Numbered from the stretch's first letter, positions 9,363-36,972 are shown. The stretch is 44,468 bases of DNA from Candidatus Hadarchaeota archaeon (GCA_964509845.1 CAZDZG010000002.1:1-44468); one strand, 5' to 3'. The notes: generated by a model not told the origin, from the letters alone. Program-made: numbers and translations.

Positions 9363-10982
9363 ATGCCTGAGGACTTCCTGATCGTAAGGGATCTCACCAA
9401 GGAGTTTATCCCCGGCCTACCCGTCGTGAGGAACATCTCCTTCACCCTGCAAGAGGCCAAGACCTTTGGACTGCTGGGAAAAAGCGGGCAGGGGAAGTCC
9501 GTGATCATGCAGGCCATCCGCGGGGTTCCCGAGTACGAGCCCACCACCGGGGAAATCATCTTCAGGGTGGCCTACTGCCCCAGCTGCCACTGGGTGGAGT
9601 ATCCCTCCAAGGCCGGGGAGTCCTGTCCCAAGTGCTCCACCAGGATGGAGTTCAGGGAGGTGAACTACTGGGAAGAGCTGCACAAGCAGAGCCTCATAGG
9701 CAAGTCCATTCACGACAGGATGGCCATCATGCCCCAGCGCGGCTTCTCCCTTTACAGCGAGTTCCCGGCCGTGGAGAACATAAGGAGGGTGCTGCTGAGC
9801 ATAGGGTATCCCGAGGCGGAGGTGGACTTGAGGGCGGTGGAGCTCCTCTCGAGCGTGAGGCTCCAGCACAGGCTCCTGCACCTGGGCAGGGACCTGTCGG
9901 GAGGGGAGAAGCAGAGGGTTATCTTCGCCATGTGCCTTGCTAGGAATCCCCTGCTCTTCCTGGCGGATGAGCCCACCGGGACCCTGGATCCCATAACCAG
10001 CGTGGTGGTGTCGGACGTGATAAAGGAAGCCGTGGAGAGGGACAGGATCTCCCTTCTCCTCACCTCCCACTGGCCGGAGGCCATCAAGATGCTCACGGAG
10101 GAAGCCATCCTCATCGAGAACGGCGAGATGGTCATGAAGGGGAAGTCGGAGGATGTTTACCATGCCTTCATGGAGAAGGTGGAGAAGCTTGAGGTTCAGA
10201 GGTTCAAGGGAACCAACCCCATAGTGAAGTGCGAGGGGGTGAGGAAGTGGTACTACACCTTCGACAGGGGACTGGTAAAGGCGGTGGACGGGGTGGACCT
10301 GGAGATATACGAGGGGGAGGTCTTCGGAATAGTGGGCCTGAGCGGGAGCGGGAAGACCACGCTGGCCCACATGATCATGGGGATCAAGCCCGTGACCCAG
10401 GGGAAGATCTCGGTCAGGATAGGGGAGGAGTGGGTAGACATGGGCATTCCGGGTCCAGACGAGAGGGGGAGGGCCACCGTGCACATGGACATCCTGCATC
10501 AGGAGTACACTCTGCACGCCGGAAGGATCATCCTGGAGAACCTCATAGGGGTGGTGACCGAGCCCCTGCCGGAGGAGGTGAAAACCCAGCGGGCCTACGA
10601 GGTGCTGAGGGCGGTGAACTTCACGGACCCGGAGATAGATTACCTCCTCTACAAGTTCCCGGACCAGCTCAGCGAGGGGGAGAGGCACAGGGTCTGCATA
10701 GCCAGGTCCCTCATGAAGAAGCCCAAGCTGGTTCTCCTGGATGAGCCCACCGGGACGGCGGATCCCATCACCAGGGTGGAGATAGCCAAGAGCATAAGGA
10801 GTGCCAGGGACTCCTTGAACCAGACCTACCTCATCATAAGCCACGATATAGACTTCATGAAGCTCGCCTGCGACAGGGTGGCCTACATGAGACACGGGAA
10901 GATACTTGCCATAGGGGATCCGGACGAGATAATAGAAATGATGGTGAGGACGGAGAGGGAGGCCCTCCAGAAGGGGGGATGA
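9363..10982 (+). CDS. atwA: Methyl-coenzyme M reductase system component A2 (dual ABC ATPase with Zn motif)
   Basis: Two NBDs (GKSGQGKS/LSGGEKQR and GLSGSGKT/LSEGERHR), A2-specific insert CPSCHWVE...CPKC, DEPTGTLDP, TSHWPE, EWVDM..PG..ERGRA, LHQEY. No membrane domain. Confidence 0.92.
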   Translation: MPEDFLIVRDLTKEFIPGLPVVRNISFTLQEAKTFGLLGKSGQGKSVIMQAIRGVPEYEPTTGEIIFRVAYCPSCHWVEYPSKAGESCPKCSTRMEFREVNYWEELHKQSLIGKSIHDRMAIMPQRGFSLYSEFPAVENIRRVLLSIGYPEAEVDLRAVELLSSVRLQHRLLHLGRDLSGGEKQRVIFAMCLARNPLLFLADEPTGTLDPITSVVVSDVIKEAVERDRISLLLTSHWPEAIKMLTEEAILIENGEMVMKGKSEDVYHAFMEKVEKLEVQRFKGTNPIVKCEGVRKWYYTFDRGLVKAVDGVDLEIYEGEVFGIVGLSGSGKTTLAHMIMGIKPVTQGKISVRIGEEWVDMGIPGPDERGRATVHMDILHQEYTLHAGRIILENLIGVVTEPLPEEVKTQRAYEVLRAVNFTDPEIDYLLYKFPDQLSEGERHRVCIARSLMKKPKLVLLDEPTGTADPITRVEIAKSIRSARDSLNQTYLIISHDIDFMKLACDRVAYMRHGKILAIGDPDEIIEMMVRTEREALQKGG

Positions 10983-13311: not shown

Positions 13312-13332
13312 AAAGATAGAAGGGGTATCCTC

Positions 13333-13340
13333 TTTATAAG
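13333..13340 (-). promoter_or_regulatory. TATA box for the CCG Fe-S gene
   Basis: CTTATAAA on the minus strand in an AT-rich divergent spacer. Confidence 0.6.
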
Positions 13341-13426
13341 TATTTCGCCTTAGTGCTTCGGTATCCTCACTAAGAGGAAAATTATTTCGGCTGTTTGAGG
13401 ACAAAGAGGAAAAGACCTTCGATAAA

Positions 13427-19974: not shown

Positions 19975-21711
19975 CTATCCGTTCGGGCCGGGGCCAAGCT
20001 CGGAGAGGAACTCCACCCCCGGCAGCTCCATGAAGCTCCTCACCACCTCCTCCGGGCTCCCCTCCTTCACCACCTTCCCCTCCCACATCAGCAGGGACCG
20101 GTGGGAGATTTCCCTCACGAAGTCCAGGTGGTGACTCACCACCACCATGGTCAGGCCCAGCTCCCGGTTGAGGAGCTTCAGCGTGTTGGTGATTCCCCGA
20201 AGGGTTAGGGGGTCCAGGTCACCGAAGGGCTCGTCCAGGAAGAGGATGGCGGGGCGGAAGAGGAGCTCTAGGGCTATGGCCAGCCTTATCCTCTCCCCCC
20301 AGGAAAGCTCGAAGGTCTTCCTGTCCACCACCTCCTCCGGGAGCTGGCAGAGCTTCAGCGCGGGCTTTATCACCTTGGAGACGGCCTCCCAGGGGGCCAC
20401 GGGAAAGAGCTCCTTCACCAGCTCCCTGTCCAGACCGAGCTCCTCCAGTCTGGCCTCCGCCTCCCTCTCCGGGTAATCGGAGAGCCTGTAGAGGGCATCC
20501 ACCACCTCCTCCCTGAGCCCCAGCTCCTTTGCCCTTCGCTTGGCGTGGGCCAGGGCCCTCTCCCCCTTTACCCCCAGCCTGGCCATGGCCATCTCCCTGA
20601 CCGAGGCGTGGTAGGGGAGGTCGAGCTCCTGATGGATCCTGCCTATCCTCCTCCTCACCTCCATGGCCCGGTAGCTGAGTCTGGTTATGTTCACCGTCCT
20701 CCCCTCCATCCGGTACAGGACCTCCCCCTCGTCGGGCAGCTCCAGGCCCGAGAGGAGCCTGAGGAGAACGGTCTTGCCCACCCCGGAGGGACCCACGATG
20801 GAGAGGATCTCCCCCTTCCTCACGTCGAAGCTGACCCCCTTCAGCTCGAAGGTCTCCTTGAGGACCTCGGCGTAGTACTTCTTCCTCAGGTTCCTGACCC
20901 TCAGGAGGATTCCCCGCCTGGGAGGGGAGAGGGGAAGGGGGGGCTCCAGTCCGGAGAGGAAGTGGGAGATCACCTCCTTGGGAGGCCCTATCTCCACCAC
21001 CCTTCTCTCCAGCCACATCACCCTGTCGGAGAGGGCCAGGAGGAGGGAGGGCAGATGGGAGGCCACCAGCACCGAGATCCCCAGCTCCTCCCTGAGCCTC
21101 CTTATCTCTTCCACCGCCTGCTTTTTGGTGGCGGGGCAGGTCATGGTGACGGGTTCGTCCAGGAGGAGCAGCAGGGGCCTCTCCCCCAGGGCCAGCTGTC
21201 TGGCCAGCACCAGCCTCTGCTTCTCCCCCCCGCTGAGGGTGAAGGCCGGATGATTCTCCTTGTGAAGGAGGCCCACCGCCCCCAGGATCTCCCTGGCCCT
21301 CTCCCTGAGCCTGGCGAAGTCCTCGGAGTCCTCGGGGGGGAGGGGGAAGGACTCGTCCCCCGTCTCCAGGGCCTGGAGCCTCCTCATCACGTTCTCCAGC
21401 ACCGTCCCCTGCCAGAGCCCGAAGGAGCGCTGCAGGTGGATGGCCGTAAGCCCCCTGAGCCTCAGGTAGTCCTCGGGAGGGGAGGAGGGGGTGAGGACCA
21501 GCCTCCCCAGCCTCACCTCCCCCTTCTCAAAGGGGAGGGAACCCCTGAGGATGCGGATCAGGGTGCTCTTTCCTCCCCCGCTCCTGCCTATGATGCCCAG
21601 GATCTCCCCCTTCCCCAGCTCGAAGGAGACCTCCTCCAGGGCCTCCACCCTCCCCCCTCCCTCCAGCGAGTAGCCCTTGCAGAGACCCCTCACGCTGAGA
21701 AGGGGCTCCAT
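19975..21711 (-). CDS. Component A2-like dual ABC ATPase lacking the Zn motif (second AtwA paralog)
   Basis: GRSGGGKST/LSGGEKQR and GPSGVGKT/LSWGERIR, AIHLQRSFGLW, DEP.TM.CP.TK. No permease gene. Divergent from the mmp operon. Confidence 0.8.
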   Translation of the reverse strand: MEPLLSVRGLCKGYSLEGGGRVEALEEVSFELGKGEILGIIGRSGGGKSTLIRILRGSLPFEKGEVRLGRLVLTPSSPPEDYLRLRGLTAIHLQRSFGLWQGTVLENVMRRLQALETGDESFPLPPEDSEDFARLRERAREILGAVGLLHKENHPAFTLSGGEKQRLVLARQLALGERPLLLLLDEPVTMTCPATKKQAVEEIRRLREELGISVLVASHLPSLLLALSDRVMWLERRVVEIGPPKEVISHFLSGLEPPLPLSPPRRGILLRVRNLRKKYYAEVLKETFELKGVSFDVRKGEILSIVGPSGVGKTVLLRLLSGLELPDEGEVLYRMEGRTVNITRLSYRAMEVRRRIGRIHQELDLPYHASVREMAMARLGVKGERALAHAKRRAKELGLREEVVDALYRLSDYPEREAEARLEELGLDRELVKELFPVAPWEAVSKVIKPALKLCQLPEEVVDRKTFELSWGERIRLAIALELLFRPAILFLDEPFGDLDPLTLRGITNTLKLLNRELGLTMVVVSHHLDFVREISHRSLLMWEGKVVKEGSPEEVVRSFMELPGVEFLSELGPGPNG

Positions 21712-21764
21712 CTTACTAGAGAACTCGATGGGGCTAAAAGGGAGGCCCCACCCAGGAGTAGGAG

Positions 21765-23078
21765 GTGGTGAAGGAAGGAGTGGTCATCGTCTCCCCCGAG
21801 GTGTACTCCTACGGGGCCATGCTGATAGGGGGAGTTCTGAGGGAGGAGGGGTACAGGGTGAGGGTGAAGAGGGGGCTGGAGGGGATGGAGGGGGAGAGGT
21901 GGGTGGGGCTAAGTCTGACCTCCCTCTCCCACCTCAGGGAGGCCAGGAGGATCCTGCCCGCCCTCAAGAGCAGGGGGGCGAAGGTGGTGGTGGGGGGATC
22001 CATCACCCAGGTCCCCGAGCTGGTGCTGCGCCTGCTCCCGGAGGTGGATGCGGTGGTGGTGGGAGAAGGTGAGGAAACGGCCCCGGAGGTCTTCGAGGCC
22101 CTACGGGAGGGGAGGGAGCTGGAGGGGATCAGGGGGTTGGCCTTCCGCCGGGGGGAGGAGGAGGTGAAGACCCCACCGAGGGATCCTCCCCGCCTGGAGG
22201 GCAGGCCCCTCCCGGAGATACCGCCCGACGTCTGGAGGCAGGACATAAGGGGGGCCCAGGTCTACCTGGAGACCCACCGGGGATGCAGGGGCGGATGCGG
22301 CTTCTGCCAGGTCCCCTGCTTCTTCGGGAGGAGGGTTAGGTCCAGGCCGGTGGAGGAGATCGTGGAGGAGGTCAAGGCCTTCCTGGCGAAGGGGGTTCGC
22401 AGGTTCTCCCTCTTCGGGGGCACCTCCACCCATTACGGTGGGGACTTCGTGGAGCTGCTGGAAAGGGTGAGCGAGGTGGTGGGGCCTAGGAACCTCTCCG
22501 TTCCCGATCTGAGGGTGGATGAGGTGGAGGAGGAGGTGCTGGAGGCCCTCCGGAAGTACACCATAGGCTTCGTGATCTTCGGGATAGAGTCGGGCAGCGA
22601 AAGGATGTTAAGGAGGATGGGGAAGGGAATTACGGCGGAGGAGATAAGGGAAGGGGTGGAGAAGGCGAAGGAGGCGGGACTGGAGGTGGGAGGGGCCTTC
22701 ATCGTGGGTTATCCCGGGGAGACGGAGGAGGATTATGAGGAGACCAGGAGGATGGTGGAGGAGCTGATGCTGGATGAGTACACCATAAGCCTGGCGGATC
22801 CCCTGCCCGGCACCCCCCTGGCCGAGCAGGTCCTCCTCCTCCCGGAGGAGGAGAATCCCGTCTTCCAGAGGGAGGAAAGGGGAAGGGGGAAGAGGCTTGG
22901 CCTGACGGTGGCGGAAAGCAGGGCCCTTGACCTCATGCTGACCGCCGCCTGCGCCCGCTCCAGGCCCATTCCCCTCACCGACTCCTTCTACAGGAGGCTG
23001 GTGGAGGAGGTGAGGAGGCAGGGGGAGGAGATAAGGGCCAACACCAGGGACCTCAAGAGGTGCCTGGCGGGAAGATGA
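21765..23078 (+). CDS. Cobalamin-dependent radical SAM enzyme, probable MCR glutamine C-methyltransferase (QCMT/MgmA-like)
   Basis: N-terminal B12 domain (SPEVYSYGAMLIGGVL; VVVGEGE), IRGA.VY.ETHRGCRGGCGFCQVP (CxxxCxxC), PDLRVD, FGIESGS. Directly upstream of mmp3. Confidence 0.72.
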   Translation: MVKEGVVIVSPEVYSYGAMLIGGVLREEGYRVRVKRGLEGMEGERWVGLSLTSLSHLREARRILPALKSRGAKVVVGGSITQVPELVLRLLPEVDAVVVGEGEETAPEVFEALREGRELEGIRGLAFRRGEEEVKTPPRDPPRLEGRPLPEIPPDVWRQDIRGAQVYLETHRGCRGGCGFCQVPCFFGRRVRSRPVEEIVEEVKAFLAKGVRRFSLFGGTSTHYGGDFVELLERVSEVVGPRNLSVPDLRVDEVEEEVLEALRKYTIGFVIFGIESGSERMLRRMGKGITAEEIREGVEKAKEAGLEVGGAFIVGYPGETEEDYEETRRMVEELMLDEYTISLADPLPGTPLAEQVLLLPEEENPVFQREERGRGKRLGLTVAESRALDLMLTAACARSRPIPLTDSFYRRLVEEVRRQGEEIRANTRDLKRCLAGR

Positions 23079-24589
23079 TCAGGGTTCTCATCAACGGCCA
23101 GGGGAGGGAGTGCCAGCCCGACCTTCCGGTTCTGGAGGTCCTCAGGCGGGCCGGCGTCCTCCACCGCCCCGACTGCAAGATCCTGGTGACTAGGAGGAAG
23201 GGGGAGGAGGAACCGAAGGAGTACCTGATGGAAACCACCAAGGGAAGCCTCGTCTTCAGGGTGGAGGAGGGGGCGCTGGGCTGGTGGAGGGAGAACTTCC
23301 GCCTCTTCCAGGGAAAAGAAATGTGGTGGGAGACGGCACAGGCGGTGGTCTTCGGGCCCGTGGACCTCAGAGGAAGGGGACTGGTTCCGGGGAAGGGAAG
23401 GAGGAGGCTGGAGGAGGGGGAGCTCTTCCTGGGCTTCGGGGGCTTCGATCCCTCCCAGGCCTTCCTCGGTCTGGCCAGGAGGCCCCACGAGGGAGTGTAC
23501 GGGATACCGGAGGGATTCGTGCTGGGAGAGGTGGTGAGGGGCGAGCACGTGCTGGACGGGCTGGGGAGGGGGGACCAGCTCCTCTCCGTCTCCCCCCTGG
23601 TCAGGGAGAGGAGGGAAACGGTGAGGGGCAACCCGGCCTTCCTGAGGGTGGAGGAGGGAATGGAGATCTTCACCTTCGTGGAGGTGAACCTCCTCCCGGA
23701 GGCCGTGAGGGGGGCGGAGCACCTGCTGGGGGTCCTCAGGGAGGGGGTCTTCAGGGTGGATTGGGAGGGTTCCTCCTTCCTCTCCATGGAGGGGGTGCCC
23801 GTGGACGGCCTTCCCCCCGAGAACACCGTCATGAGGTTCAGGGGGGCCGTGACCGTCAGGAACGCCGGGAAGAGGGCGGGGGCCCTTTACCTCTACCGTA
23901 GGGATGCCCCGCCCTCCCCCCATCACAGCGTGGTGGGAAGGGTGGGCAGGGGGGAGGAGCTGCTCGACCACGCCTGCCGGGGGGAGAGGTTGCTCGTCCG
24001 GACCGTCCCGCGCAGGCTGGTGGTGGTGGGGATGACGCAGGGGGAGGCCTCCCGTCTGCTGGGGGAGGAGGGGATAAGGCACGTGAGGGTGGGGGATGAG
24101 AGGGACGAGGCGCTCATCATAGAGCAGAGGCCGGAGTTCAGCCTGGAGGTCAAGCGGGAAGGCGTGGTGGCCACCCTGGGGGTGGATCCGGTGCACGTGG
24201 TGAGGATAAGGCTGTGGGAGGACAGGGCCCCCAGGAGCGTGGCCCACTTCCGGGCGCTGGCGGAGATGGTGACCTCCCCGGTGGGGAAGCTGAGCATCAT
24301 AGCCCGCACGGAGGAGGTGGTCCTCCTCTCCAGCGTGAGGGGGAGGACCTTCAGGCCCGTTTCCCCCGAGAACGTGGCGGAGGGGGAGGTGGAGGAGGGA
24401 GTGCTTGGCATCACCAATTCCTTTCGCAGGCTGACGGGTCTGGCTGGGGTCAGGCTCAAGCCCAGCAGGAGCTTCGGCCCCACCGGAGAGGCTTTAGAGG
24501 CCACCAACCTGATAGGAAGGGTAATCGCGGGAATGGAGGCCCTGAGGAACGGAAAGGAGGGTGATGTGATATACGTGATGGAGGAGTGA
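23075..24589 (+). CDS. mmp3: Methanogenesis marker protein 3 (cyclophilin-like, MCR activation complex)
   Basis: FGP, GGFDP, VTVRN.G...G.LYLYR.D...S..HSVVG.V, EQ.PE, AP.SV.HFR, PEN, GITN..R...G..GVRL....FGPTGE....TN..G. Confidence 0.9.
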   Translation: MIRVLINGQGRECQPDLPVLEVLRRAGVLHRPDCKILVTRRKGEEEPKEYLMETTKGSLVFRVEEGALGWWRENFRLFQGKEMWWETAQAVVFGPVDLRGRGLVPGKGRRRLEEGELFLGFGGFDPSQAFLGLARRPHEGVYGIPEGFVLGEVVRGEHVLDGLGRGDQLLSVSPLVRERRETVRGNPAFLRVEEGMEIFTFVEVNLLPEAVRGAEHLLGVLREGVFRVDWEGSSFLSMEGVPVDGLPPENTVMRFRGAVTVRNAGKRAGALYLYRRDAPPSPHHSVVGRVGRGEELLDHACRGERLLVRTVPRRLVVVGMTQGEASRLLGEEGIRHVRVGDERDEALIIEQRPEFSLEVKREGVVATLGVDPVHVVRIRLWEDRAPRSVAHFRALAEMVTSPVGKLSIIARTEEVVLLSSVRGRTFRPVSPENVAEGEVEEGVLGITNSFRRLTGLAGVRLKPSRSFGPTGEALEATNLIGRVIAGMEALRNGKEGDVIYVMEE

Positions 24590-25002
24590 AGGAGGTAAGG
24601 CTGCTGGTGCTCTCCCCCTCTTCTCCCCTCAGCCCCGGGGCCCTTTACCGCCACCTGGTGAGGGAGGGGTTCAGGCTTAGGATGAAGGAGACCTGCTTCG
24701 GGCTGGTGGTGGAGGGGGAGAGGGAGGAGGTGGAGAGGGCCGTCAGGAAGGCCAGGGAGCTGGACCCCTTCGGAATCTTCTCGAAGCCCAGGGCCTATCC
24801 GCCTGGGGACCCCCGGATATGCAGGGCCTCCAGGGGAGGAGGTCCCAGGATGGGCTTCTGCTTCCTGGACTACGAGGTGGAGAAGCTTCCCCTCCTCTCC
24901 GAGGCCCTGAGGGAGCCGGGGGAGGAAAGGGAGGAGGAGGGGAGGAGGAGAAGGCTGGAGGTGCGGGAGCTCAGGGAGATCCTGAAGGAGGAGCTGGCTT
25001 GA
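24586..25002 (+). CDS. mmp6: Methanogenesis marker protein 6
   Basis: KETCFG...EG, F.K.R.YPPGDPR.CRA.RGGGPR.GF. Confidence 0.92.
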   Translation: MKEVRLLVLSPSSPLSPGALYRHLVREGFRLRMKETCFGLVVEGEREEVERAVRKARELDPFGIFSKPRAYPPGDPRICRASRGGGPRMGFCFLDYEVEKLPLLSEALREPGEEREEEGRRRRLEVRELREILKEELA

Positions 25003-25436
25003 GGGTTTTCATCTTCCCGCCCAACAGCCTGATCCTGCACGAGCTGGTGGAGAGGTTCGGCCACACCCCCCTCTCGCTGGGCAGGGCGATGGGAGAGAGG
25101 GTGAGGGATCCTGGTCTGGACAATCCTCCCCTGAACCTGACGGAGGAGGACCTGGTCAGGGGGCTCAAGTACGTCTCCATAGAGGCCCCCTCGGGCGTCA
25201 GGGGGAGGATGGGGGTGCTGGGCCCTATGGTGGAGCAGGCGGAGGCGGCCGTGGTGGTGAGGAACGCCGATTACGCCTTCGGTTGCTCGGGCTGCGCCAG
25301 GGCCAACCTCCAGGTCCTGTATCTGCTCAGGAGGAGGGGAATCCCGGTGCTGGAGGTGGAGTACCCGAGGGACAGGGAGGAGGCGAGGAGGATGGTTAGG
25401 AGGATAGCGGAGTTCCTGAGGGGGTTGGGGAAGTGA
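24999..25436 (+). CDS. mmp5: Methanogenesis marker protein 5
   Basis: VFIFPPNSLIL..LVERFGH.PL, PP.N.TEED...GLKY...E.PSGVRGRM, FGC.GCAR.N. TTG start overlapping the mmp6 stop. Confidence 0.93.
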   Translation: MRVFIFPPNSLILHELVERFGHTPLSLGRAMGERVRDPGLDNPPLNLTEEDLVRGLKYVSIEAPSGVRGRMGVLGPMVEQAEAAVVVRNADYAFGCSGCARANLQVLYLLRRRGIPVLEVEYPRDREEARRMVRRIAEFLRGLGK

Positions 25437-26650
25437 CCAGGATAGCCCAGCTCTCCTGCGGGACGGAGTGGAGCGGGATCCAGGCCATGCTGGAGAGGGC
25501 GGCGGCCATGGTGGGGGCGGAGCTCTTCTTCCCCGAGGTGTCGCTCGAGGACATAGACCGGGCGGTGGAGGAGGTGGGGCTGGAGGTGCAGAGCCCCAAC
25601 CTCCGCCTCATGCTCGCCAGGGCGAAGGCCCTGGCCGACGGGGTTCCCGCGGATGGTGCCCTCATCCTCACCTGCTTCAGGTGCGCGGAGGGGGTGCTGG
25701 CCAAGCAGGCGGTGAGGAGGTACCTGCAGGAGAGGACCAACCTCCCCCTGGTCATGTACTCCTTCACCGAGAGGCCCAAGCTGGGGGAGCTCCTCATCAG
25801 GATGGAGGCCCTGGTCACGCTGGCGGAGAGGAAGGCCCTGCTTGCCAGGGAGAGGCAGGAGGGGCTGACCCTGGGCATAGACTCCGGCTCCTCCACCACC
25901 AAGGCCGTGGTGATGAGGGACAACGAGATCATAGGGACGGGCTGGGCACCCACCACGGAGGTGGTGGAGGCGGCGGAGAGGGTGAAGAGGGAGGCCCTGA
26001 GGCAGGCCGGGGTAAAGGAGGAGGAGATAGAGGGGGTGGGGGTCACGGGATACGGGAGATACCTGCTGGGGGAGGTGATGAAGGCGGACCTGGTCCAGGA
26101 GGAGCTGACGGTGGTTTCCAAGGGGACGGCCTTCCTGGCCGGGGTGCAGAGGGGTGAGGCCACGGTGATAGACATAGGGGGGCTGGACAACAAGGTGATG
26201 ACCCTCCTCAACGGCATCCCCGACAGCTTCAGCATGGGGGGGATCTGCGCGGGCTCCTCCGGGAGGTTCCTGGAGCTGGCGGCGGCCAGGCTGGGGGTGG
26301 ATGTGGTCACGCTGGGGAAGCTGGCCCTGCAGGGGGATCCCGAGAGGGTGAGGATGGACAGCTACTGCGCCATCTTCGGGATCCAGGACCTGGTCTCCGG
26401 GCTTGCCAGCGGCAGTTCCAGGGAGGACATAGCGGCGGCGGCCTGCAGGAGCGTGGCCAGGCAGGTTTTCGAGACCCAGCTGCAGGAGATAGACCTCAGG
26501 CTTCCCGTCATAGAGGTGGGGGGAACGGCCCTGGTGGAGGGGCTGGTGAAGGAGATGAGGGAGATCCTGAAGGTGGACATAAGGGTGCCGAAGTTCCCGC
26601 AGTTCGGGGGGGCGGTGGGGGCGGCCCTCCTGGTCTCAGGGAGAAGATGA
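25433..26650 (+). CDS. mmp15: Methanogenesis marker protein 15 (BadF/BcrAD-type Fe-S ATPase/activase)
   Basis: IAQLSCGTE.SGIQ, CFRCAEG, YSFTER, RMEAL, GIDSGSSTTKAVV, DIGG.DNK, MGGICAG.SGRFLE, SYC..FGIQDLV. Confidence 0.94.
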   Translation: MTRIAQLSCGTEWSGIQAMLERAAAMVGAELFFPEVSLEDIDRAVEEVGLEVQSPNLRLMLARAKALADGVPADGALILTCFRCAEGVLAKQAVRRYLQERTNLPLVMYSFTERPKLGELLIRMEALVTLAERKALLARERQEGLTLGIDSGSSTTKAVVMRDNEIIGTGWAPTTEVVEAAERVKREALRQAGVKEEEIEGVGVTGYGRYLLGEVMKADLVQEELTVVSKGTAFLAGVQRGEATVIDIGGLDNKVMTLLNGIPDSFSMGGICAGSSGRFLELAAARLGVDVVTLGKLALQGDPERVRMDSYCAIFGIQDLVSGLASGSSREDIAAAACRSVARQVFETQLQEIDLRLPVIEVGGTALVEGLVKEMREILKVDIRVPKFPQFGGAVGAALLVSGRR

Positions 26651-27324
26651 GCGAGAAGGTCTTTGCGGAATCCCTGGATCCCTCCTACCAGCACGGCTAC
26701 GGGGTCCTCATGGCCAAGGTGATAGCGGAGCACGCCCTCTCCGACCTGGGCCTGGGGGGGGCGGTGGAGGAGATGAGGATCCTGGTGGACATCGGGAAGC
26801 CCCTGTTCGCCGTCAGGGTGAGGTTGGGTCCTTCCCTGCCTCCCGTGAGGGTGAAGGACTGCGCCAGGGTGCAGGAGGCCCAGGATGGCGTACACGTCTA
26901 CCTGCTGGACGAGACGCACGCCCCCTCCCTGGCCAGGATCCTGAGGGAGAGGTTCGGGGGGAAGCTGGAGCAGCTGGACCGGTGGGAGGTGGTGGTCCCC
27001 GCCGGGGAGGCGAGGGCGGGGGAGCTGGAGGAGATGGTGGTGAGCAGGCCCTCCGAAACCCTGCTCGACAGACTGCTGGATGCCGTGCAGAGGGTGATAC
27101 CGGTGGGCTTCAGGGTGGGGTACTCGGAGAGGACGGGGAACTCCCTCCTGTTGGTGGCGAGCGAGAACCCGATCAGGGAGGAGTGGGTGGAGGAGGTGAA
27201 GGAGGCCCTCCGCAGGCCCCCCTCCCCCATTCCCCCCGAGAGGATGGAGGCAATAAGGAGGAGGGTGGAGAAGGCCGAGGTGGAGGCGAAGTTCAAGGAA
27301 GGGGCCATGCCTTTCAAGTGGTAG
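26647..27324 (+). CDS. mmp17: Methanogenesis marker protein 17
   Basis: AL.DL.LG..V..., DET.AP.L...L...FG...EQ.DR.E, RV.P.GFRV, VASE. Position between mmp15 and mmp7. Confidence 0.82.
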   Translation: MSEKVFAESLDPSYQHGYGVLMAKVIAEHALSDLGLGGAVEEMRILVDIGKPLFAVRVRLGPSLPPVRVKDCARVQEAQDGVHVYLLDETHAPSLARILRERFGGKLEQLDRWEVVVPAGEARAGELEEMVVSRPSETLLDRLLDAVQRVIPVGFRVGYSERTGNSLLLVASENPIREEWVEEVKEALRRPPSPIPPERMEAIRRRVEKAEVEAKFKEGAMPFKW

Positions 27325-27325
27325 C

Positions 27326-28267
27326 TTGCCCGGCTTCCTCTTCGAGGGGGGAGGGTACCGGCACCAGGAGATGCTCGAGCTGGTGGAGGACCTGGGAGGG
27401 GCCATCCTGCAGGTCAGGCTGGTGGGCTCGGAGGTCACCATCACCTTCTCCGTTCCCGGGGAGGACGTGTGGGCGGTGGAGGAGCTGGCCCGGGACCTGC
27501 AGGGGAGGTTGAGGAGGCTCCCCCTGCTGGGTTCGGAGATAGCGGTGGTTTCCCCCACCATCACCCGCCACCACCTCCCCCACCCCCTCTGTGACGTGGC
27601 GGAGTACCTGCGCAGAGAGGGGGCCAAGACCAACATGATAGGCCTGGCCAGGGGACCGGGGCAGAGGATCTGCCAGATCAGCGAGGAGGAGAGGAGGCTG
27701 ATAGAGGAGCACGACGCGGCCGTCTTCGTGCTGGGGAACTTCGAGCACTGCTTAAGGGAGCACAAGTGGAGGCTCTTCAAGGATCTCTCCGTCCCGGTGG
27801 TGGTGACGGGTGGCCCCGAGCTCCCCTCCCTCCCCCACGCCTTCGCCTACATCTCCGGAATGGGGAGGCTGCCCTACCGGGCCAGGACCTTCACGGAGAT
27901 AGGAAAGCTGGAGGAGGTGGCCAGGGCGGTGGAGAGGGCGCTGGAGGAGAGGAGGAGGAAACTGGAGCAGGATCCCCCCCTCCTCTCCCCGCTCGTGCTC
28001 AAGGCGGAAATAGAGCGAAAGCTAGGGGAGGTCCTGAGGGGAGGGGCCCCCTTCCCCGTGACCCCGCAGCTTAGGGGGGTGAGGGTGAAGCTTCCCTTCT
28101 CCCGGTTCGCGGAGAGGCTGGCGGAGCTGGAGGTGGCGGGCCACAGGCTCGGGGAGATAGCGGAGATACGCAGGTCGGTGATGAGGGATTACATCCTGGT
28201 CCACCTCCTCCCCCTCTCCAGGGTGGGGGCGGGTCCGGGGTTAATAAGAGGGGCCGTCCAGGGTTGA
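27326..28267 (+). CDS. mmp7: Methanogenesis marker protein 7
   Basis: FEGG.YR..E..ELVEDLGG.ILQ, PL.GSEIAVVSPT..RHHLPH..CD.AEYLRR.GAKTNMIGLARG.G, EHD.AVF.LG.F..C, RVKLP. Confidence 0.93.
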   Translation: MPGFLFEGGGYRHQEMLELVEDLGGAILQVRLVGSEVTITFSVPGEDVWAVEELARDLQGRLRRLPLLGSEIAVVSPTITRHHLPHPLCDVAEYLRREGAKTNMIGLARGPGQRICQISEEERRLIEEHDAAVFVLGNFEHCLREHKWRLFKDLSVPVVVTGGPELPSLPHAFAYISGMGRLPYRARTFTEIGKLEEVARAVERALEERRRKLEQDPPLLSPLVLKAEIERKLGEVLRGGAPFPVTPQLRGVRVKLPFSRFAERLAELEVAGHRLGEIAEIRRSVMRDYILVHLLPLSRVGAGPGLIRGAVQG

Positions 28268-28635
28268 AGGTGGAGGAGGAAAGGCCCGAGGTGGAGGTCT
28301 TCCCCTACAGGCTTCCCAGCGATGAGACGGTCTCCAGGTTTCTCACCCTCCTCAGGGAGATGGGAGGGGTGTGCAGGGTGATGATGCTGGGCCCCTCCAT
28401 TTCCTACCGCAAGGTCATCAGGGTGGGAGAGAAGCCGATAACCCTGTACATACAGGTGGGAAAGTTCTGGGTGGAGATGGAGAGCCTGGAGCGGCTGGAG
28501 GACCTGAAGAGGATCTGCCAGCAGGTCTTCCCCTACGGCTTCGAGCTGAGGGTGGGGAGGTTCGGCCTCGCGAAAGAGGCCCTGAGCGGGAGGAGGATGG
28601 TGCTCAGGATGGACACGCTGGAGGGTGAGGGGTGA
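28264..28635 (+). CDS. mcrD: Methyl-coenzyme M reductase operon protein D (short form)
   Basis: EV.P.RL...ET...L, RV...GPS, RKVI.V......L..QVG, IC...FP.G.....GRF. Immediately upstream of mcrC. Confidence 0.78.
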   Translation: MKVEEERPEVEVFPYRLPSDETVSRFLTLLREMGGVCRVMMLGPSISYRKVIRVGEKPITLYIQVGKFWVEMESLERLEDLKRICQQVFPYGFELRVGRFGLAKEALSGRRMVLRMDTLEGEG

Positions 28636-29273
28636 GGATAGGGAGGAAGTGGAGGGTGGTGGACTGCAGGGAGACGGCCGGGCTGGGGCTGGGGGGAGGG
28701 CTGGCCCAGCGCGGGACGCTGGCCGAGGCCGCCGAGCCCGACCTCATCGTCCTCTCCATGGGTCCCAGCCCCAGGCACATCACCAAGCCCGTCTGCGAGA
28801 TCACCTACGGCCTGAGGGAGGCGGGCTTCAACGTCAGCGTGTTGGTCCTGAAGGCCGGCATAGGCCCTCCCGAGGAGCTCATGGACCAGGTGGTGGGGGC
28901 GGCCTACTCCAGCCTCTCCCCGGAGGAGGAACAGCAGATCCGCAGGCACAAGCTCGCCCTCATCCACGTGGGGAACGTTCCCAGGCACTTCATCCCCAAG
29001 GTGAAGGTCTTCCTGAGGAACGTGGAGATCCCCGCCATCGTGGTCTCCCAGGCCCCCGTGACCCTCCAGGACTTCGCGGCGGAGGGAATAAGGACCAGCG
29101 AGTTCGAGCCGGAGGTTCCCGAGACCAAGGGAATGGTGGTGGAGGTGGTCACGGGGGTGATAAGGGGACAGTCCTGCCCCCAGGACAAGCTGGACGAGAT
29201 CGTGGGCAAGGTAAGGTACTGGATGGAGAGGGTGAAGGATGGACAGGCATGTCTGGGAAGTGGCCAAGGCTAG
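28632..29273 (+). CDS. mcrC: Methyl-coenzyme M reductase operon protein C
   Basis: IGR...VVDCRE..GLG.GGGLAQRGT.AE, M.P..RHITKPVCEITY.LR, SVLVL.AG.G, H.GNV..H...K, Q.PV...DFA..G, GV.RG..CP. Confidence 0.95.
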   Translation: MRIGRKWRVVDCRETAGLGLGGGLAQRGTLAEAAEPDLIVLSMGPSPRHITKPVCEITYGLREAGFNVSVLVLKAGIGPPEELMDQVVGAAYSSLSPEEEQQIRRHKLALIHVGNVPRHFIPKVKVFLRNVEIPAIVVSQAPVTLQDFAAEGIRTSEFEPEVPETKGMVVEVVTGVIRGQSCPQDKLDEIVGKVRYWMERVKDGQACLGSGQG

Positions 29274-30084
29274 GGTGGTGGTGGAGGGGGGAAGGGTGGT
29301 GGAGGTGGGGGAGCCCCTCACCGAGTTCTGTCCCGTGCTGGAGGCCCTCACCGGGGAGGGGAAGAGGACCAGGGAGGGGGTGAGGGAATCCATGGAGAGG
29401 AGGATAGAGCTGCTGGGCCTCTGCACCCCGAGAAGGGTCCTGGAGGTGGAGGGGATGGGGGTGGGCTTCGGGGCCTCCGAGTGCCTGGCCACGGCCCTGG
29501 AGAGGGGGGTGGTGGAGACCACGGTGACGGTTTGCGAGGGGGCGGGGACGGTGCTCACGGACAGGCCCGAGCTGGTTCAGGGGATAGGGATGGCGATGAG
29601 CGCCCTCCTGGAGACCAGCCCCATCCCGGAGGTGATCAGAAGGCTGCAGGAAAGGGGGGCGGTGGTCCTGGACCCCTCCACGGCCAGGATGGACCAGGTG
29701 GAGGGGGTGAGGAGGGCCCTGTCCATGGGTTACCGCAGGGTGGGGGTGACGGTCACGGGTCCCGAGGCCCCCTTGATAGAGGAGCTCAGGGAGCTGGAGG
29801 GGAGGGAGGGGGCCACCCTCCTCCTCATCGTGGTCCACACCACGGGGGTGGGGGAGGAGTTCCTTCCCTTCCTGCGCAGGGCGGACATGGTCCATGCCTG
29901 CGCCTCCAGGGTGGTCAGGGAGGGGCTGGCCCCGCTGGCCAGGGCCTCCTTCGGCAGGAGCATACCCGTGTACGCCCTGACGGAGCTGGGGGAGAGGGTG
30001 CTGAGGATGCAGGAGGAAAAGGTCAGGAGGGAGGAGAGGGGGGTGAGGGTGGAAGTCCCCCGTCCCCCCCACCCCCTGCGCTGA
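29239..30084 (+). CDS. mmp8: Methanogenesis marker protein 8 (DUF2099 family)
   Basis: D.H.....KARVV...G.V.EVGEP....CP, FG.SE, VCEGAGTV....PELVQGIG..MS.L..TSPI, DQ..G, VHTTG, CAS. Confidence 0.88.
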   Translation: MDRHVWEVAKARVVVEGGRVVEVGEPLTEFCPVLEALTGEGKRTREGVRESMERRIELLGLCTPRRVLEVEGMGVGFGASECLATALERGVVETTVTVCEGAGTVLTDRPELVQGIGMAMSALLETSPIPEVIRRLQERGAVVLDPSTARMDQVEGVRRALSMGYRRVGVTVTGPEAPLIEELRELEGREGATLLLIVVHTTGVGEEFLPFLRRADMVHACASRVVREGLAPLARASFGRSIPVYALTELGERVLRMQEEKVRREERGVRVEVPRPPHPLR

Positions 30085-30087
30085 ACC

Positions 30088-30660
30088 ATGGAGCTGGGGG
30101 AGGGCGTTTACCTGGTGAAGCCGGGGAGGGTGATCTACGATGAGGCCTCCGTGCTTTACGCCTCCTCCTCCGTGGTGCTGATCGAGGACGGGGAGCTCAT
30201 CCTGGTGGACACCGCCCTGGAGGAGGACTGGCCCCTGATCGAGGAGGGAATAAGGAGGGCGGGATTCAGGCCCTCCCAGGTGGGGGTGGTGGTGAACACC
30301 CACCTCCACCCCGATCACACGGGTTGCAACCACAGGTTCGAGGCCAGGCGCTACGCCCATCCGCTGGAGATAAGGAGGGTGGGAACGGAGGGCTATCTCC
30401 CCTGTCCCGCCAGGCTCTCGGAGAGGGTCTGGGTGATGGAGACCCCGGGACACGTGGAGGGACATCTCTCGGTGGTCTGCGGGGGGGTGGTGGTGGCCGG
30501 CGATGCCATTCCCACCAGGAGGCACTACGAAGAGGGGATCATCCCCAGGATTCACACGGACGCCGGCAAGGCCAGGGAGAGCATGAGAAGGATAGCGGAG
30601 GTGGCGGAGGTCATCGTTCCCGGTCACGATCTTCCCTTCCGCGTGAGGAGGAGAGCGTGA
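30088..30660 (+). CDS. Metallo-beta-lactamase fold hydrolase
   Basis: ILVDT, NTHLHPDHTG, TPGH, AGDA, PGHD. Confidence 0.9.
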   Translation: MELGEGVYLVKPGRVIYDEASVLYASSSVVLIEDGELILVDTALEEDWPLIEEGIRRAGFRPSQVGVVVNTHLHPDHTGCNHRFEARRYAHPLEIRRVGTEGYLPCPARLSERVWVMETPGHVEGHLSVVCGGVVVAGDAIPTRRHYEEGIIPRIHTDAGKARESMRRIAEVAEVIVPGHDLPFRVRRRA

Positions 30661-31785
30661 AGGGCTTCTCCACCAAGGCGGTGCACGGGGGGGAGGAACC
30701 CTGCCCCGTCACCGGCTCCCACGCCGTCCCCCTCTACCAGACCTCCACCTTCGTCCTGGGGAAGGAGCTTCCCCCCAGGTACGTTTACACCAGGCATGGG
30801 AACCCCACCCAGGAGGTGCTGGAGAAAAAGGTGGCCCTGCTGGAGGGAGGGGAGGCGGCCCTGGCCACGGCCTCAGGGATGGCGGCCATCCTCACCTCCG
30901 TGCTCACCCTGGCGGGGAAGGGGGAGAAGGTGGCCTTTTCCGCGGCGGTCTACGGTGGCACCTACAGCCTGGCCAGGAACCTCCTGCCGAGGCTGGGGAT
31001 GGAGGTCATGATGTTCGATCCCAGGAGCAGGGAGGAGGTGGAGGAGGTACTCAGGAGGGGGGCGAGGGTCCTCCTGCTGGAAACCCCCACCAACCCCACC
31101 CTGGACGTGGTGGACCTCGGGGAGGTCTGCGACCTGGCGGAGGAGAGGGGGGCGAGGGTGATCGTGGACAACACCCTCATGACCCCTTACTACCAGAGGC
31201 CGCTGGAGCTGGGGGCGGAGGTGGTGGTGCACAGCGCCACCAAGTACCTTTGCGGCCACGGGGACGCGCTGGGAGGGGTGGTGGTGGGTAAGGAGGAGTT
31301 CATCTCCGAGGCCAGGAGGGTAATGGTCCTGACCGGTGGGTCCATCAGCCCCTTCAACGCCTGGCTCATCGTCAGGGGCATCAAAACCCTTCCCCTCAGG
31401 ATGGAGAGGCACAGCCAGAACGCCCTCAGGGTGGCGGAGTTCCTCCGTTCCCATCCCAGGGTTAAGGGGGTGAGGTACCCTGGTCTCCCCGACCATCCCC
31501 AGCATGAGCTGGCCAGGAGGCAGATGAGGGGGTTCGGGGGGATGGTTTCCTTCGAGCTGGGAGGAAGGGAGGAGGCTTACAGGATGATGGGGGGGCTGAG
31601 GCTGATCAGGTGCGCGGTAAGCCTGGGAGACGTGTGCTCCCTCATCGAACACCCCTTCACCATGACCCATCGCTCCCTCCCCGAGGAGGAGAGGGAGAGG
31701 CGAGGGACTGGTGAGGCTCTCGGTGGGGGTGGAGGATGCGGAAGATATAATAGAAGATCTGGGGAGAGCGTTAGATGCCCTCTGA
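30657..31785 (+). pseudogene. Cys/Met metabolism PLP enzyme (methionine gamma-lyase/cystathionine gamma-synthase family), frameshifted near 31701
   Basis: PLYQTSTF, YTR.GNPT, ASGMAAI, ETPTNP, DNT, HSATKY (PLP lysine), SLG...SL.EHP..MTH. The conserved tail GLVRLSVGVEDAEDIIEDL is in the +1 frame (31702-31785). Could be a real lesion or an assembly error. Confidence 0.8.
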
Positions 31786-33229
31786 GGACATGGACAGGAT
31801 CTTCCATCCCCGGGGGGTGGCGGTGGTTGGGGCCTCCCCCAACCCCTCCAAGTTCGGTTTCATCTTCTACTACGGCCTGAAGAACTCGGGGGCCCCGGTC
31901 TACCCCGTGAACCCCAACGAGAGGGAGGTCCTGGGGGACAGGTGCTATCCCACGGTGGACGCCATCCCGTACGAGGTGGACTACGCCGTGATCTCCATCC
32001 CAGCCCCCTCCGTTCCCAAGGTGATAGAGGACTGCGGGCGAAAGGGGGTGAAGGCGGTGAGCATCTACACCGCGGGCTACGGGGAGGAGGGGACGGAGGA
32101 GGGGAGGAGGAGGGAGAGGGAGCTGGCGGAGACGGCCAGGAGGAGCGGGGTGAGGGTGATAGGCCCCAACTGCATAGGGATTTACTGTCCCAAGGGGAGG
32201 CTCTCCTTCTTCGCCGGCCTTCCCCTGGTGGAGGGGGAGGTGGCCTTCCTCTCCCAGAGCGGAGGACATGCGGAGGAGCTGGCCTACAAGGCGGAGAACT
32301 GGGGGATCAGGTTCAGCAAGATCGTGAGCTTCGGGAACGCCTGCGACGTGACCCCTGAGGAGCTGCTCGAGTACCTGGGGGAGGATCCTGACACGAAGAT
32401 CATAGGGATGTACGTGGAGGGCTCGAGGGACGGGAGGAGGTTCTTCGAGGTCCTGCGAAGGGTGGCGGCCAGGAAGCCCGTGGTGGTCTGGAAGGGAGGG
32501 GAGACGGAGGCTGGGGCGAGGGCGGTGGCCTCTCACACGGGCTCCCTGGCCGGCTCCGTCCAGGTGTGGAGGGCGGCCCTGAGGCAGGCGGGGGCCATCC
32601 AGGTGGAGGACTTCGAGGAGATGGCGGACGTCCTTCACGCCCTGAGCCGTTTGCCCCTCCCCCGGGGAAGGAGGGTGGCCGTGGTGGGGGCGGGAGGGGG
32701 GGCGGGGGTGGCCTCCACGGATGCCTGCGAGAAGAACGGCCTAAGGGTGGCCCCCCTGTCCGAGGAGACCGTGAGGAGGCTGGAGGAGGTGGTTCCCACC
32801 CCCGGGACCTCCGTGAGGAACCCCGTGGACCTCTCCTACTTCGCGCTCTTCGACTTCTCCCTGATGGGGAGGTGCGTGGAGATCCTGGCCTCCGACCCTG
32901 GGGTGGATGCCATCATCGCCCACGTGAGCCACCTGGACATGATGATGAAGGCCCTCCCCACCAGCCCCGAGGAGGAGGTGCTGCACGTCATGGCGAGGGT
33001 GAAGGAGAGGATGAGGGCCTTCCCTGAGAAGCCCCTGGCCCTGGTGCTGGCCCTGGAGTCGGACTTCGAGATCCAGAAGAGGAAGGTTGAGATGAGGGGG
33101 AAACTGGTCAGGGAGGGCTTCTGCGTTTTCCCCACCACCGCCAGGGCGGCCAGGGCCCTCTCCCACCTGGCCTTCCTGAGGGAATTCAGGGAGAGGAGGG
33201 CTAGAGCGGAGGCTTCCCAGGGTTCATGA
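31775..33229 (+). CDS. ADP-forming acyl-CoA synthetase (ACD) alpha-subunit family, copy 1
   Basis: F.PR.VAVVGAS, YPVNP, GPNCIG, SQSGG, S.GN..D, SHTGSLAG (phospho-His), NPVD. No ATP-grasp domain. Confidence 0.88.
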   Translation: MPSEDMDRIFHPRGVAVVGASPNPSKFGFIFYYGLKNSGAPVYPVNPNEREVLGDRCYPTVDAIPYEVDYAVISIPAPSVPKVIEDCGRKGVKAVSIYTAGYGEEGTEEGRRRERELAETARRSGVRVIGPNCIGIYCPKGRLSFFAGLPLVEGEVAFLSQSGGHAEELAYKAENWGIRFSKIVSFGNACDVTPEELLEYLGEDPDTKIIGMYVEGSRDGRRFFEVLRRVAARKPVVVWKGGETEAGARAVASHTGSLAGSVQVWRAALRQAGAIQVEDFEEMADVLHALSRLPLPRGRRVAVVGAGGGAGVASTDACEKNGLRVAPLSEETVRRLEEVVPTPGTSVRNPVDLSYFALFDFSLMGRCVEILASDPGVDAIIAHVSHLDMMMKALPTSPEEEVLHVMARVKERMRAFPEKPLALVLALESDFEIQKRKVEMRGKLVREGFCVFPTTARAARALSHLAFLREFRERRARAEASQGS

Positions 33230-36427: not shown

Positions 36428-36972
36428 GGGGAAAGGGGCTGAAGGATCTCTTCTCCATGCAGGAGGGGGAAGCGGGCTTCCTGGAGGAGCTGAGGGGGGA
36501 GGTGGGGGATCAGGAGCCGGAGGTCTGCTTCCAGTGCATGAGGTGCACCAGCGGGTGCGACGCCTTCAGGTTCCGGCCCTCCTTCAGGCCCCACCAGCTG
36601 GTGGGCTTCGCCAGGCTGGGGCTCAGGGAGAGGATGGTGGGAACGGAGGTGATCTGGAGCTGCACCACCTGCCATTACTGCAGGGAGGTCTGCCCCCAGC
36701 GGGTGGCCCCGGTGGAGGTGGTGAAGGCTGCCAGAAGGGTGGCCGTGAGGGAGGGGAGGACGGTGGAGGGGCACAGGAGGATAGCGGGCTACCTGGTGCA
36801 GACGGGACACCTGGTCCCGGTGAACGACACGGTGAGGGGGCAGAGGGAGAGGCTGGGTCTGCCGGGCAACCCCCCCACCACTCATGCCTTCCCGGAGGCC
36901 CTGGAGGAGGTGAGGAGGCTGGTGGGACGCACGGGCTTCGCGAGGCTGCTGGGGGTGGAGAGGGATGGCTGA
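36424..36972 (+). CDS. hdrC: Heterodisulfide reductase subunit C, copy 1
   Basis: CFQCMRCTSGC, IWSCTTCHYCREVCP, TGH.VP, R..LGLP..PPTTH. Start at CTG 36424 (RBS-backed) or ATG 36457. Confidence 0.9.
   Translation: MRGKGLKDLFSMQEGEAGFLEELRGEVGDQEPEVCFQCMRCTSGCDAFRFRPSFRPHQLVGFARLGLRERMVGTEVIWSCTTCHYCREVCPQRVAPVEVVKAARRVAVREGRTVEGHRRIAGYLVQTGHLVPVNDTVRGQRERLGLPGNPPTTHAFPEALEEVRRLVGRTGFARLLGVERDG

Follow-up and report, generated by a model that had tools for sequence, protein, structure and literature searches.

A ten-gene operon that joins mcrD and mcrC to methanogenesis marker genes in a Hadarchaeales genome: a probable maturation and activation operon for alkyl-coenzyme M reductase

In M. maripaludis, McrC, Mmp7, Mmp17 and Mmp3 together with component A2 make up the ATP-dependent activation complex for methyl-coenzyme M reductase (MCR), a complex whose solved form also contains a DUF2098 protein and carries three [8Fe-9S-C] clusters held by C12, H49, C55 and H118 of McrC and by H84, C90 and C143 of Mmp7 (PMC12176620). 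McrC acts in trans in this organism, where it is encoded within mcrBDCGA while its partners bear scattered locus tags (PMC9584954), and McrD has been proposed to be a chaperone for the insertion of F430 (PMC10288656, quoted in PMC12176620). Consolidated arrangements are in print as well: the activation operon of M. acetivorans combines A2 with Mmp5, Mmp6, Mmp17, Mmp7, Mmp3 and Mmp15 (10.64898/2026.03.18.712670), and in Methanomassiliicoccales mcrC lies outside the reductase operon among the methanogenesis marker (mmp) genes (PMC4153887). A stretch of 44,468 nucleotides from Candidatus Hadarchaeota archaeon (GCA_964509845.1, CAZDZG010000002.1:1-44468; the whole stretch is called the window below) carries a related consolidation, built entirely from known families, at positions 21765-30084. 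Here, ten adjoining open reading frames (ORFs) on the plus strand run over 8.3 kb from a radical SAM methyltransferase gene (mgmA) through mmp3, mmp6, mmp5, mmp15, mmp17, mmp7, mcrD and mcrC to mmp8 (Table 1). This operon very probably serves the maturation and activation of an alkyl-coenzyme M reductase (ACR), with helper proteins that act in trans on a reductase encoded elsewhere in the genome.

The gene list and coordinates of an initial annotation of this DNA agree with the ORF list and are upheld by the marker-family hidden Markov models (HMMs) by which that annotation had proposed to check them. Nine of the ten proteins score above the curated NCBIfam cut-offs, the Pfam matches are concordant, and E-values between 1e-18 and 1e-191 exclude chance. 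McrD is the only protein below its cut-off, in a match that spans positions 1-110 of the 150 of TIGR03260; it passes the Pfam cut-off and resembles solved McrD chains (8gf5_X, E 2.5e-14; 8w33_A, E 3.2e-9), the alignment on 8gf5_X extending from chain residue 32 to residue 147 of 193 with residues 77-90 skipped. All frames are intact, and GC content at third codon positions (GC3) is 0.87-0.92, as in the other genes of the window.

Seven of the nine junctions are 4-nt NTGA overlaps, in keeping with the claim that most of the genes are joined in this way. Six of these are firm (GTGA, TTGA, GTGA, ATGA, TTGA and GTGA), and the seventh, an ATGA between mgmA and mmp3, is conditional on a start of mmp3 at ATG 23075, which agrees with the HMM alignment; the earliest possible start would be GTG 23060. 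The start of mmp5 is TTG 24999, with the TIGR03271 match beginning at residue 62 of the longer ORF, and that of mmp8 (ATG 29239) is backed by TIGR03275, of which profile position 1 falls on residue 4. From these overlaps, the ten genes most likely form a single transcript, and the 53-bp region that separates them from a divergent ATPase gene is presumed to be a bidirectional promoter. The sequencing runs that contain the stretch are two DNA runs from hot-spring metagenomes and no RNA run. A split into more than one transcription unit (for instance mgmA, mmp3-mmp17 and mmp7-mmp8), the genes being neighbours by descent and functionally uncoupled, would fit the two remaining junctions, a 1-nt gap between mmp17 and mmp7 and a 35-nt overlap between mcrC and mmp8, and the set is indeed divided at those points in Methanolliviera, Helarchaeota and Methanomethylicia. 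However, no gap exceeds 1 nt, and the gene order has been kept across 55-95% protein divergence in the family as well as in Bathyarchaeota BA2, which makes a functional division of this kind distinctly unlikely.

Table 1. Positions of the operon genes, of the A2-type ATPases and of the reductase-contig genes; scores are given in bits against the curated cut-off, and positions refer to the window unless a contig or locus is named.
Feature	Position	Strand	Evidence
MgmA/QCMT-type B12-dependent radical SAM C-methyltransferase	21765..23078	+	TIGR04014 527.4 / cut-off 360
Mmp3	23075..24589	+	TIGR03268 406.2 / cut-off 234
Mmp6 (DUF2102)	24586..25002	+	TIGR03272 127.2 / cut-off 126; PF09875
Mmp5 (DUF2112)	24999..25436	+	TIGR03271 207.1 / cut-off 140
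Mmp15, BcrAD/BadFG-type ATPase domain	25433..26650	+	TIGR03286 634.3 / cut-off 456
Mmp17 (DUF2113)	26647..27324	+	TIGR03291 123.7 / cut-off 67
Mmp7 (McrC-like)	27326..28267	+	TIGR03274 368.8 / cut-off 349; 8s7v_H E 5.4e-75
McrD, compact 123-aa form	28264..28635	+	TIGR03260 65.6 / cut-off 100 (below); PF02505 67.9 / 25 (above)
McrC	28632..29273	+	TIGR03264 259.4 / cut-off 213.5; 8s7v_I E 1.2e-65
Mmp8 (DUF2099)	29239..30084	+	TIGR03275 270.5 / cut-off 233
Possible eleventh gene, MBL-fold hydrolase	30088..30660	+	weak metallo-beta-lactamase-fold matches; 3 nt past mmp8
Divergent intergenic region, 53 bp	21712..21764	.	sequence read
A2-like double-ABC ATPase	19975..21711	-	TIGR03269 270.6 / cut-off 517 (below)
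True component A2 (AtwA)	9363..10982	+	TIGR03269 649.7 / cut-off 517; CPSC-x12-CPKC; two Walker A motifs
mcrB	C51 2588-3967		415 / cut-off 516 (below)
mcrG	C51, directly after mcrB		280 / cut-off 172 (above)
Y203 (203-aa, SCP2-like)	L003:3977-4588	-	structure match
X524 (524-aa)	L003:229-1803	-	no family match

The electron-transferring part of the activation machinery closely resembles that of M. maripaludis. McrC, Mmp7, Mmp17 and Mmp3, each above its curated cut-off, match the solved chains (8s7v/9h1l) with E-values of 1e-65 to 1e-75 (PMC12176620), and the L-cluster ligands of McrC and Mmp7 are identical at seven of seven positions: C12, H49, C55 and H119 of McrC align with C12, H49, C55 and H118, and H83, C89 and C142 of Mmp7 with H84, C90 and C143. 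The four ligand residues of McrC are invariant in 24 diverse McrC sequences. One part of the initial account of the complex does not hold, as Mmp6, which had been counted among its members, is named 0 times in the main text of PMC12176620. Mmp15 matches the activators of 2-hydroxyacyl-CoA dehydratases (PDB 4eht_A and 1hux_A), with C272 and C312 placed opposite C127 and C166 of 1hux_A. The latter two cysteines presumably bind the bridging [4Fe-4S] cluster of 1hux, and the alignment, which includes both of them, suggests that Mmp15 may be an ATP-driven electron injector. The genome also has a NifB-type core gene (C1:67392-68204, 332 bits), which speaks for the activation role.

Homologue source names put the genome of the window in Hadarchaeales, and it is an ACR-bearing metagenome-assembled genome (MAG) of a hot-spring, alkane-oxidising archaeon (1.09 Mb in 87 contigs, 92% complete, contamination estimate 0.12%). 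None of mcrA, mcrB and mcrG lies within the window, which bears out the claim that the operon lacks them; the reductase genes are on contig C51 (4640 bp, locus L003), where Y203, mcrB, mcrG, X524 and a frame still open at the contig end follow each other on one strand. On this contig mcrB and mcrG are directly adjacent, with neither mcrD nor mcrC in between. The last residues of the end frame match the N-terminus of McrA from the same genus and represent the first 25 codons of mcrA, and the McrA profile has no match in any of the 87 contigs; the acrA copies therefore appear to have been lost at contig ends rather than to be truly absent, with breaks at C51 arising because acrA paralogues are near-identical. 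As acrA is missing from this assembly, the client reductase is deduced from C51 and from relatives, in which the cluster reads acrA-Y203-acrB-acrG-X524-acrA(-Y203) (L099, L100, L102), with two alpha subunits of about 85% identity, one shared beta and one gamma gene per genome. This agrees with the published description of the group, in which one operon combines two acrA with acrB and acrG (PMC11297162). McrC is present in a single copy per genome, the one of the window genome being that of the operon, and no mcrBDCGA cluster, whose presence elsewhere the initial annotation had counted towards a refutation, was found in the window genome. Among 41 Hadarchaeales genomes, McrC occurs in 6 (the window genome and five of five of its family) and in 0 of 35 from other families, while McrA occurs in five of five family relatives and 0 of 35 from other families, so that McrC presence tracks ACR exactly.

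The identification of the client as ACR is based on scores below the MCR equivalog cut-offs, without an McrA tree, for McrB on C51 and for McrA in same-genus relatives, each of which has at least two McrA matches of about 510-520 bits (cut-off 768); the ACR-clade placement of named relatives is taken from PMC10811742 and PMC11297162. The expectation of a separately encoded, divergent ACR-type reductase is thereby supported. A canonical, methane-forming MCR as client would be in line with the fact that the helper families were all defined in methanogens and with an McrG above its cut-off. It is very unlikely, however, in view of the McrB and McrA scores, of the HWGGAH(R/K) motif in the alpha subunits of relatives (16 of 17 ACR-type as against 0 of 4 MCR-type), of the formation of alkyl-CoM by cultures of the family (PMC10811742, PMC11297162) and of the beta-oxidation-like gene content of the window. 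That the operon survives from a lost methanogenesis and no longer serves any reductase has a smaller probability still: McrA is unmatched in the assembly, and neither Mmp10 nor the YcaO marker was found, but the ten frames are intact with the GC3 of their neighbours and the ligand residues kept, C51 carries the 5' end of mcrA besides mcrB and mcrG, presence tracks ACR across the 41 relatives, and cultured relatives activate hexadecane through ACR (PMC10811742). Least credible of all is a mis-binned contig with an operon from another organism, such as a Bathyarchaeon or a methanogen, for although the MAG is in 87 contigs and mis-binned McrC contigs are known in public bins, the GC content of 0.65-0.66 equals that of the rest of the genome, contamination is low, the same block is found on a 440-kb contig of a same-genus genome of four contigs, and the window includes housekeeping genes for arginyl-tRNA synthetase (ArgRS) and TiaS.

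In the mechanism that we propose for this ACR operon, the MgmA-type B12/radical-SAM methyltransferase would modify the alpha subunit, McrD would insert F430 as a chaperone, and McrC, Mmp7, Mmp17 and Mmp3 would form the electron wire that holds the three [8Fe-9S-C] clusters, with Mmp15 as an ATP-driven injector of the activase type. Component A2 would cooperate from outside the operon, perhaps together with its zinc-motif-less paralogue, and Mmp5, Mmp6 and Mmp8 would be carried as markers without an assigned role. The helpers would act in trans on the product of acrA-SCP2-acrB-acrG-X524-acrA, and, as McrC works in trans, one helper set would be able to serve two or three AcrA paralogues that share a common AcrB and AcrG. 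A physical complex and an ATP-dependent reduction of the ACR nickel from Ni(II) to Ni(I) are inferred.

Several points weigh against this reading. The acrA gene is absent from an assembly estimated to be 92% complete, as are recognisable matches to Mmp10 and the YcaO marker in a profile search, and the NifB-type core gene (C1:67392-68204) scores 332 bits, just under its cut-off of 344. Within the operon, McrD falls short of its NCBIfam cut-off, co-transcription is argued from the NTGA overlaps alone, and the role of MgmA is uncertain because the canonical target Gln is a His in the AcrA sequences concerned; component A2 proper is located outside the operon. The survey of McrC loci given below covers those most similar to the query, and weak McrD matches as well as anything more than 10 kb away or past a contig end escape it. 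The evidence from the family amounts to five genomes and the window at most, because L019-L022 are probably some of G001-G005. Finally, the McrC and Mmp7 trees are quick searches with branch support of one kind, and the rows of the latter were chosen by hand.

The ATPase gene divergent from the operon, 53 bp off mgmA, had been described as A2-like, and its position agrees with this, as do its best matches, which are A2 in NCBIfam and, among PDB chains, that of A2 in 8s7v/9h1l (197.8 bits). It is not component A2 proper, since its score lies below 517 and since it combines two Walker A motifs with no more than 3 Cys, without any CxxC-x12-CxxC zinc motif. This motif distinguishes A2 from related ABC ATPases, and a homologue devoid of it is present in many archaea (10.64898/2026.03.18.712670). 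A search of the whole genome places the true A2 in the same window 10.8 kb upstream, with a start at ATG 9363 or 9348. The paralogue faces the operon head-to-head in L020, L022 and G001 as well. Of 47 A2-type genes within 10 kb of McrC in the 80-locus survey, 36 carry the zinc motif and 8, in 2 Hadarchaeales and 6 Methanomethylicia loci, are motif-less and have the A2-like protein of the window as their closest match, the other 3 being unassignable because of truncated or merged regions. Each of the four genomes searched whole (Methanosuratincola, two Hadarchaeales and BA2) has one true A2 and one motif-less gene. Next to the true A2, a 281-aa gene (10979-11824, plus strand) overlaps its stop by 4 nt and encodes an iron-sulfur domain of the reductive-dehalogenase/QueG-like kind (E 1.6e-15 and 5.6e-14, far under the cut-offs); its product may be an electron-transfer partner of A2.

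Compared with the described systems, the locus shares with M. acetivorans the assembly of the same six mmp families, which is tied there to the reductive activation of F430; it differs in the remote position of A2 proper, in the zinc-motif-less paralogue opposite the operon, in the addition of mgmA, mcrD, mcrC, mmp8 and perhaps a metallo-beta-lactamase (MBL)-fold gene, and in its presumed ACR client (10.64898/2026.03.18.712670). Unlike the scattered genes of M. maripaludis, the partners of McrC are here in one operon. The placement of mcrC among mmp genes and the order mmp3-6-5-15-17-7 are identical in Methanomassiliicoccales (PMC4153887), whose layout is A2-mcrC-mmp3-6-5-15-17-7 beside mcrB(D)GA, but there mcrC is 5'-terminal behind a zinc-motif A2, mcrD stays with mcrBGA, mmp8 and mgmA are lacking, and the reductase genes are about 4 kb away. 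As in canonical mcrBDCGA (PMC9081873, PMC9584954), mcrD precedes mcrC, yet the pair lies between mmp7 and mmp8 rather than between mcrB and mcrG. The earlier statement that mcrDC kept their order inside the activation operon thus stands, while its wording that they were moved there goes beyond the comparison, which gives no direction of change. In BA2 (L023), nine genes from mmp3 to mmp8 (mmp3-6-5-15-17-7-mcrD-mcrC-mmp8) keep this order at 42-70% identity, and the locus belongs to the same McrC and Mmp7 clade as the window. Its operon differs at the 5' end, where there is neither mgmA nor the A2-like gene, and in that a stretch of about 25 kb takes in the operon, an X524 homologue, a single acrA (C13:135690-137363), the A2-like gene and the true A2. 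This BA2 cluster (G044:C13, ~122-145 kb) is more compact than the window.

The frequency of the layout was assessed in a survey for which 24 diverse McrC were aligned and the best 80 of 572 confirmed McrC loci were taken with 10-kb flanks, homologues of the window proteins being located in them by tblastn (81 rows with the window). The genes on the two sides of mcrC are A2 and mmp3 in 31 rows, mcrD and mcrG, the canonical arrangement, in 11, mcrD and mmp8 in 6, and mcrD and mmp5 in 4; a neighbour was detected on one side only as mcrD (5), A2 (3), mmp3 (3) or mmp5 (2), and on neither side in 16. The class with mcrD and mmp8 consists of the window, four Hadarchaeales loci and BA2. The complete ten-gene order with the A2-like gene is found in G001 (L103), L020 and L022; L021 has all ten genes with both terminal ones cut by the contig, L019 begins in mcrD, and both are consistent with the order. 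Other lineages hold parts of the set, as A2-mmp7-mcrD-mcrC in Methanolliviera (Methanoliparia), as mcrD-mcrC on its own or adjoining mmp15-17-7 in Helarchaeota, and as mcrD-mcrC-mmp5 opposite A2-like-mmp7-17-6-3 in Methanomethylicia. The layout is therefore the rule in this family and a minority overall (6 of 81 McrC loci), so that the gene-order comparison called for by the initial annotation shows it to be uncommon without being unique. None of the literature passages retrieved describes mcrD-mcrC-mmp8 as part of an mmp operon in Hadarchaeota or BA2; these genes or their synteny may be listed in the supplements to PMC11297162, PMC10811742 and PMC9635834. Seven records of the survey with gut-bacterium titles (L042, L043, L045, L046, L080, L087 and L091; Dialister, Prevotella, Bacteroides, Faecalibacterium, Ruminococcus, Lachnospiraceae and Firmicutes 'cleanbin' isolates) carry A2-mcrC-mmp operons of the Methanomassiliicoccales type and are probably mis-binned archaeal contigs.

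A shared history of the helper genes with ACR is suggested by two trees. In a quick maximum-likelihood tree of McrC (81 rows), Hadarchaeales, BA2, two Methanolliviera and three Helarchaeota-type loci form a clade of 11 rows with a support of 98 in the Shimodaira-Hasegawa-like approximate likelihood-ratio test (SH-aLRT), and a McrD match lies directly 5' of McrC in 11 of 11. The same clade is recovered for Mmp7 with an SH-aLRT of 97 (19 rows, namely 18 hand-picked loci and the window). Since four distant lineages fall into one McrC and Mmp7 clade and AcrA groups the lineages in the same way (PMC10811742), the helper-gene block is likely to have spread horizontally together with ACR.

MgmA combines a B12-binding (PF02310) with a Radical_SAM domain (PF04055) and has the CxxxCxxC motif CRGGCGFC from residue 174. 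In McrA of M. thermolithotrophicus, MgmA/QCMT acts on Gln403 (PMC13469106), a residue numbered alpha400 in M. marburgensis (PMC9118554). The residue of same-genus AcrA that pairs with position 403 of 5n1q_A is His412, and HWGGAH(R/K) replaces HFGGSQR in 16 of the 17 ACR-type alpha subunits that cover the site, a class assigned by sub-cut-off HMM score or query similarity and not by a tree: five of five in the same genus, two of two of Cerberiarchaeum type, three of three from Helarchaeota LW55_61, three of four in the genome of L026, and one each from BA2, Methanolliviera ACR and Archaeoglobi JdFR-42. The four MCR-type alpha subunits examined all keep Gln and lack HWGGAH(R/K). The AcrA set that was checked comprises L004/L101, L099, L100, L102, L111-L119, L124 and L033, the acrA of the window genome itself not being among them. 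The substitution of Gln by His is already on record (PMC9118554), and no passage linking MgmA to it was found in the literature; nor was any discussion found of a genuine MgmA at the head of the helper operon in organisms for which the AcrA copies examined in close relatives all carry His. As a separate observation, two Helarchaeota-type loci have a mgmA homologue some 4 kb away from mcrDC.

Because QCMT is reported to C-alpha-methylate many side chains in peptides (PMC13469106), C-alpha-methylhistidine is a reasonable prediction for the product. A bolder proposal goes beyond this and is, as a whole, doubtful: the operon would form a portable 'starter kit' for ACR, carried from phylum to phylum with long-chain-type ACR, MgmA would C-alpha-methylate the His in place of Gln400 (HWGGAH[R/K]) instead of making 2-methylglutamine, and the zinc-motif-less A2 paralogue would be a second, ACR-linked remodelling ATPase.

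Two further proteins accompany the reductase subunits. Y203 follows each acrA, with a paralogue past the second copy (L101:6465-7046, L102:1568-2149). Its model has a predicted local distance difference test (pLDDT) score of 83.6, and its C-terminal ~120 residues adopt an SCP2 fold according to Foldseek (44 matches in the PDB with E <= 0.001, led by 4uei at E 3.8e-7 and a target-normalised TM of 0.71), among them SCP2 with bound palmitate and alkyl-binding domains from alkylsulfatases; Pfam gives no better than E 0.07. On this structural likeness, Y203 may carry alkanes or alkyl chains for a long-chain ACR. Complex predictions of AcrA with Y203 score 0.00, 0.57 and 0.00 and count neither way on binding, and a literature search returned no paper that pairs 'sterol carrier protein' with 'alkyl-coenzyme M reductase'. 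X524 was considered as a divergent McrA and rejected, as the true mcrA start lies downstream and no Pfam or NCBIfam family matches even at E 10. Its model is confident (pLDDT 94.4), but Foldseek finds nothing like it in the PDB (best E 0.21), and VIA-align gives weak SCP2-like rows (Z 5.0-3.7). The source names of its family of 34 proteins are solely Hadarchaeales and Bathyarchaeota BA2, and both Y203 and X524 stand beside the ACR cluster of Archaeoglobi JdFR-42. Both proteins may have a role in handling long hydrophobic substrates.

Downstream of the operon, a homologue of the possible eleventh, MBL-fold gene directly follows mmp8 in L019, L020, L022 and L103 and lies 4.4 kb downstream in BA2. 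Next after it in the window is a gene for a pyridoxal phosphate (PLP) enzyme of the cystathionine gamma-synthase/methionine gamma-lyase family (~30657-31880, plus strand), which is also next in line in L019, L020 and L103 and about 5.6 kb further on in L022; the BA2 homologues of the two genes (57-58% identity) are a few kb downstream of its operon. The presence of acyl-CoA metabolism nearby, as first noted, is borne out by the neighbouring genes. At least four of them encode HdrD-like CCG-domain proteins (12085-13404, 34628-35776, 36965-37846, 39631-40908 and neighbours), and others encode EtfAB, two GlcD-like FAD proteins, aldehyde:ferredoxin oxidoreductase (AOR), CoA-transferase subunits, a pair of ADP-forming acyl-CoA synthetase subunits, and thiolase next to a DUF35-type OB protein. 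By its gene content, the surroundings are a dense acyl-CoA and electron-transfer region of beta-oxidation-like character.

Active ACR has not yet been made heterologously, and missing partners for activation, F430 insertion and modification are seen as the obstacle (PMC9118554, PMC9081873). The operon offers a defined candidate gene set for one type of ACR, 8.3 kb from a thermophile with A2 nearby, which could be used as a construct list for co-expression and for cryo-electron microscopy of an ACR activation complex. It also raises the questions of what MgmA does where its target Gln is a His, whether the zinc-less A2 paralogue, for which two unrelated lineages show synteny with mmp genes, takes part in activation, and whether the helper genes travelled horizontally with ACR. 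If the prediction for MgmA is true, C-alpha-methylated His would be a post-translational modification not yet described. For the Hadarchaeales that carry ACR, the cassette is typical of the lineage, consolidated, and probably shared horizontally.

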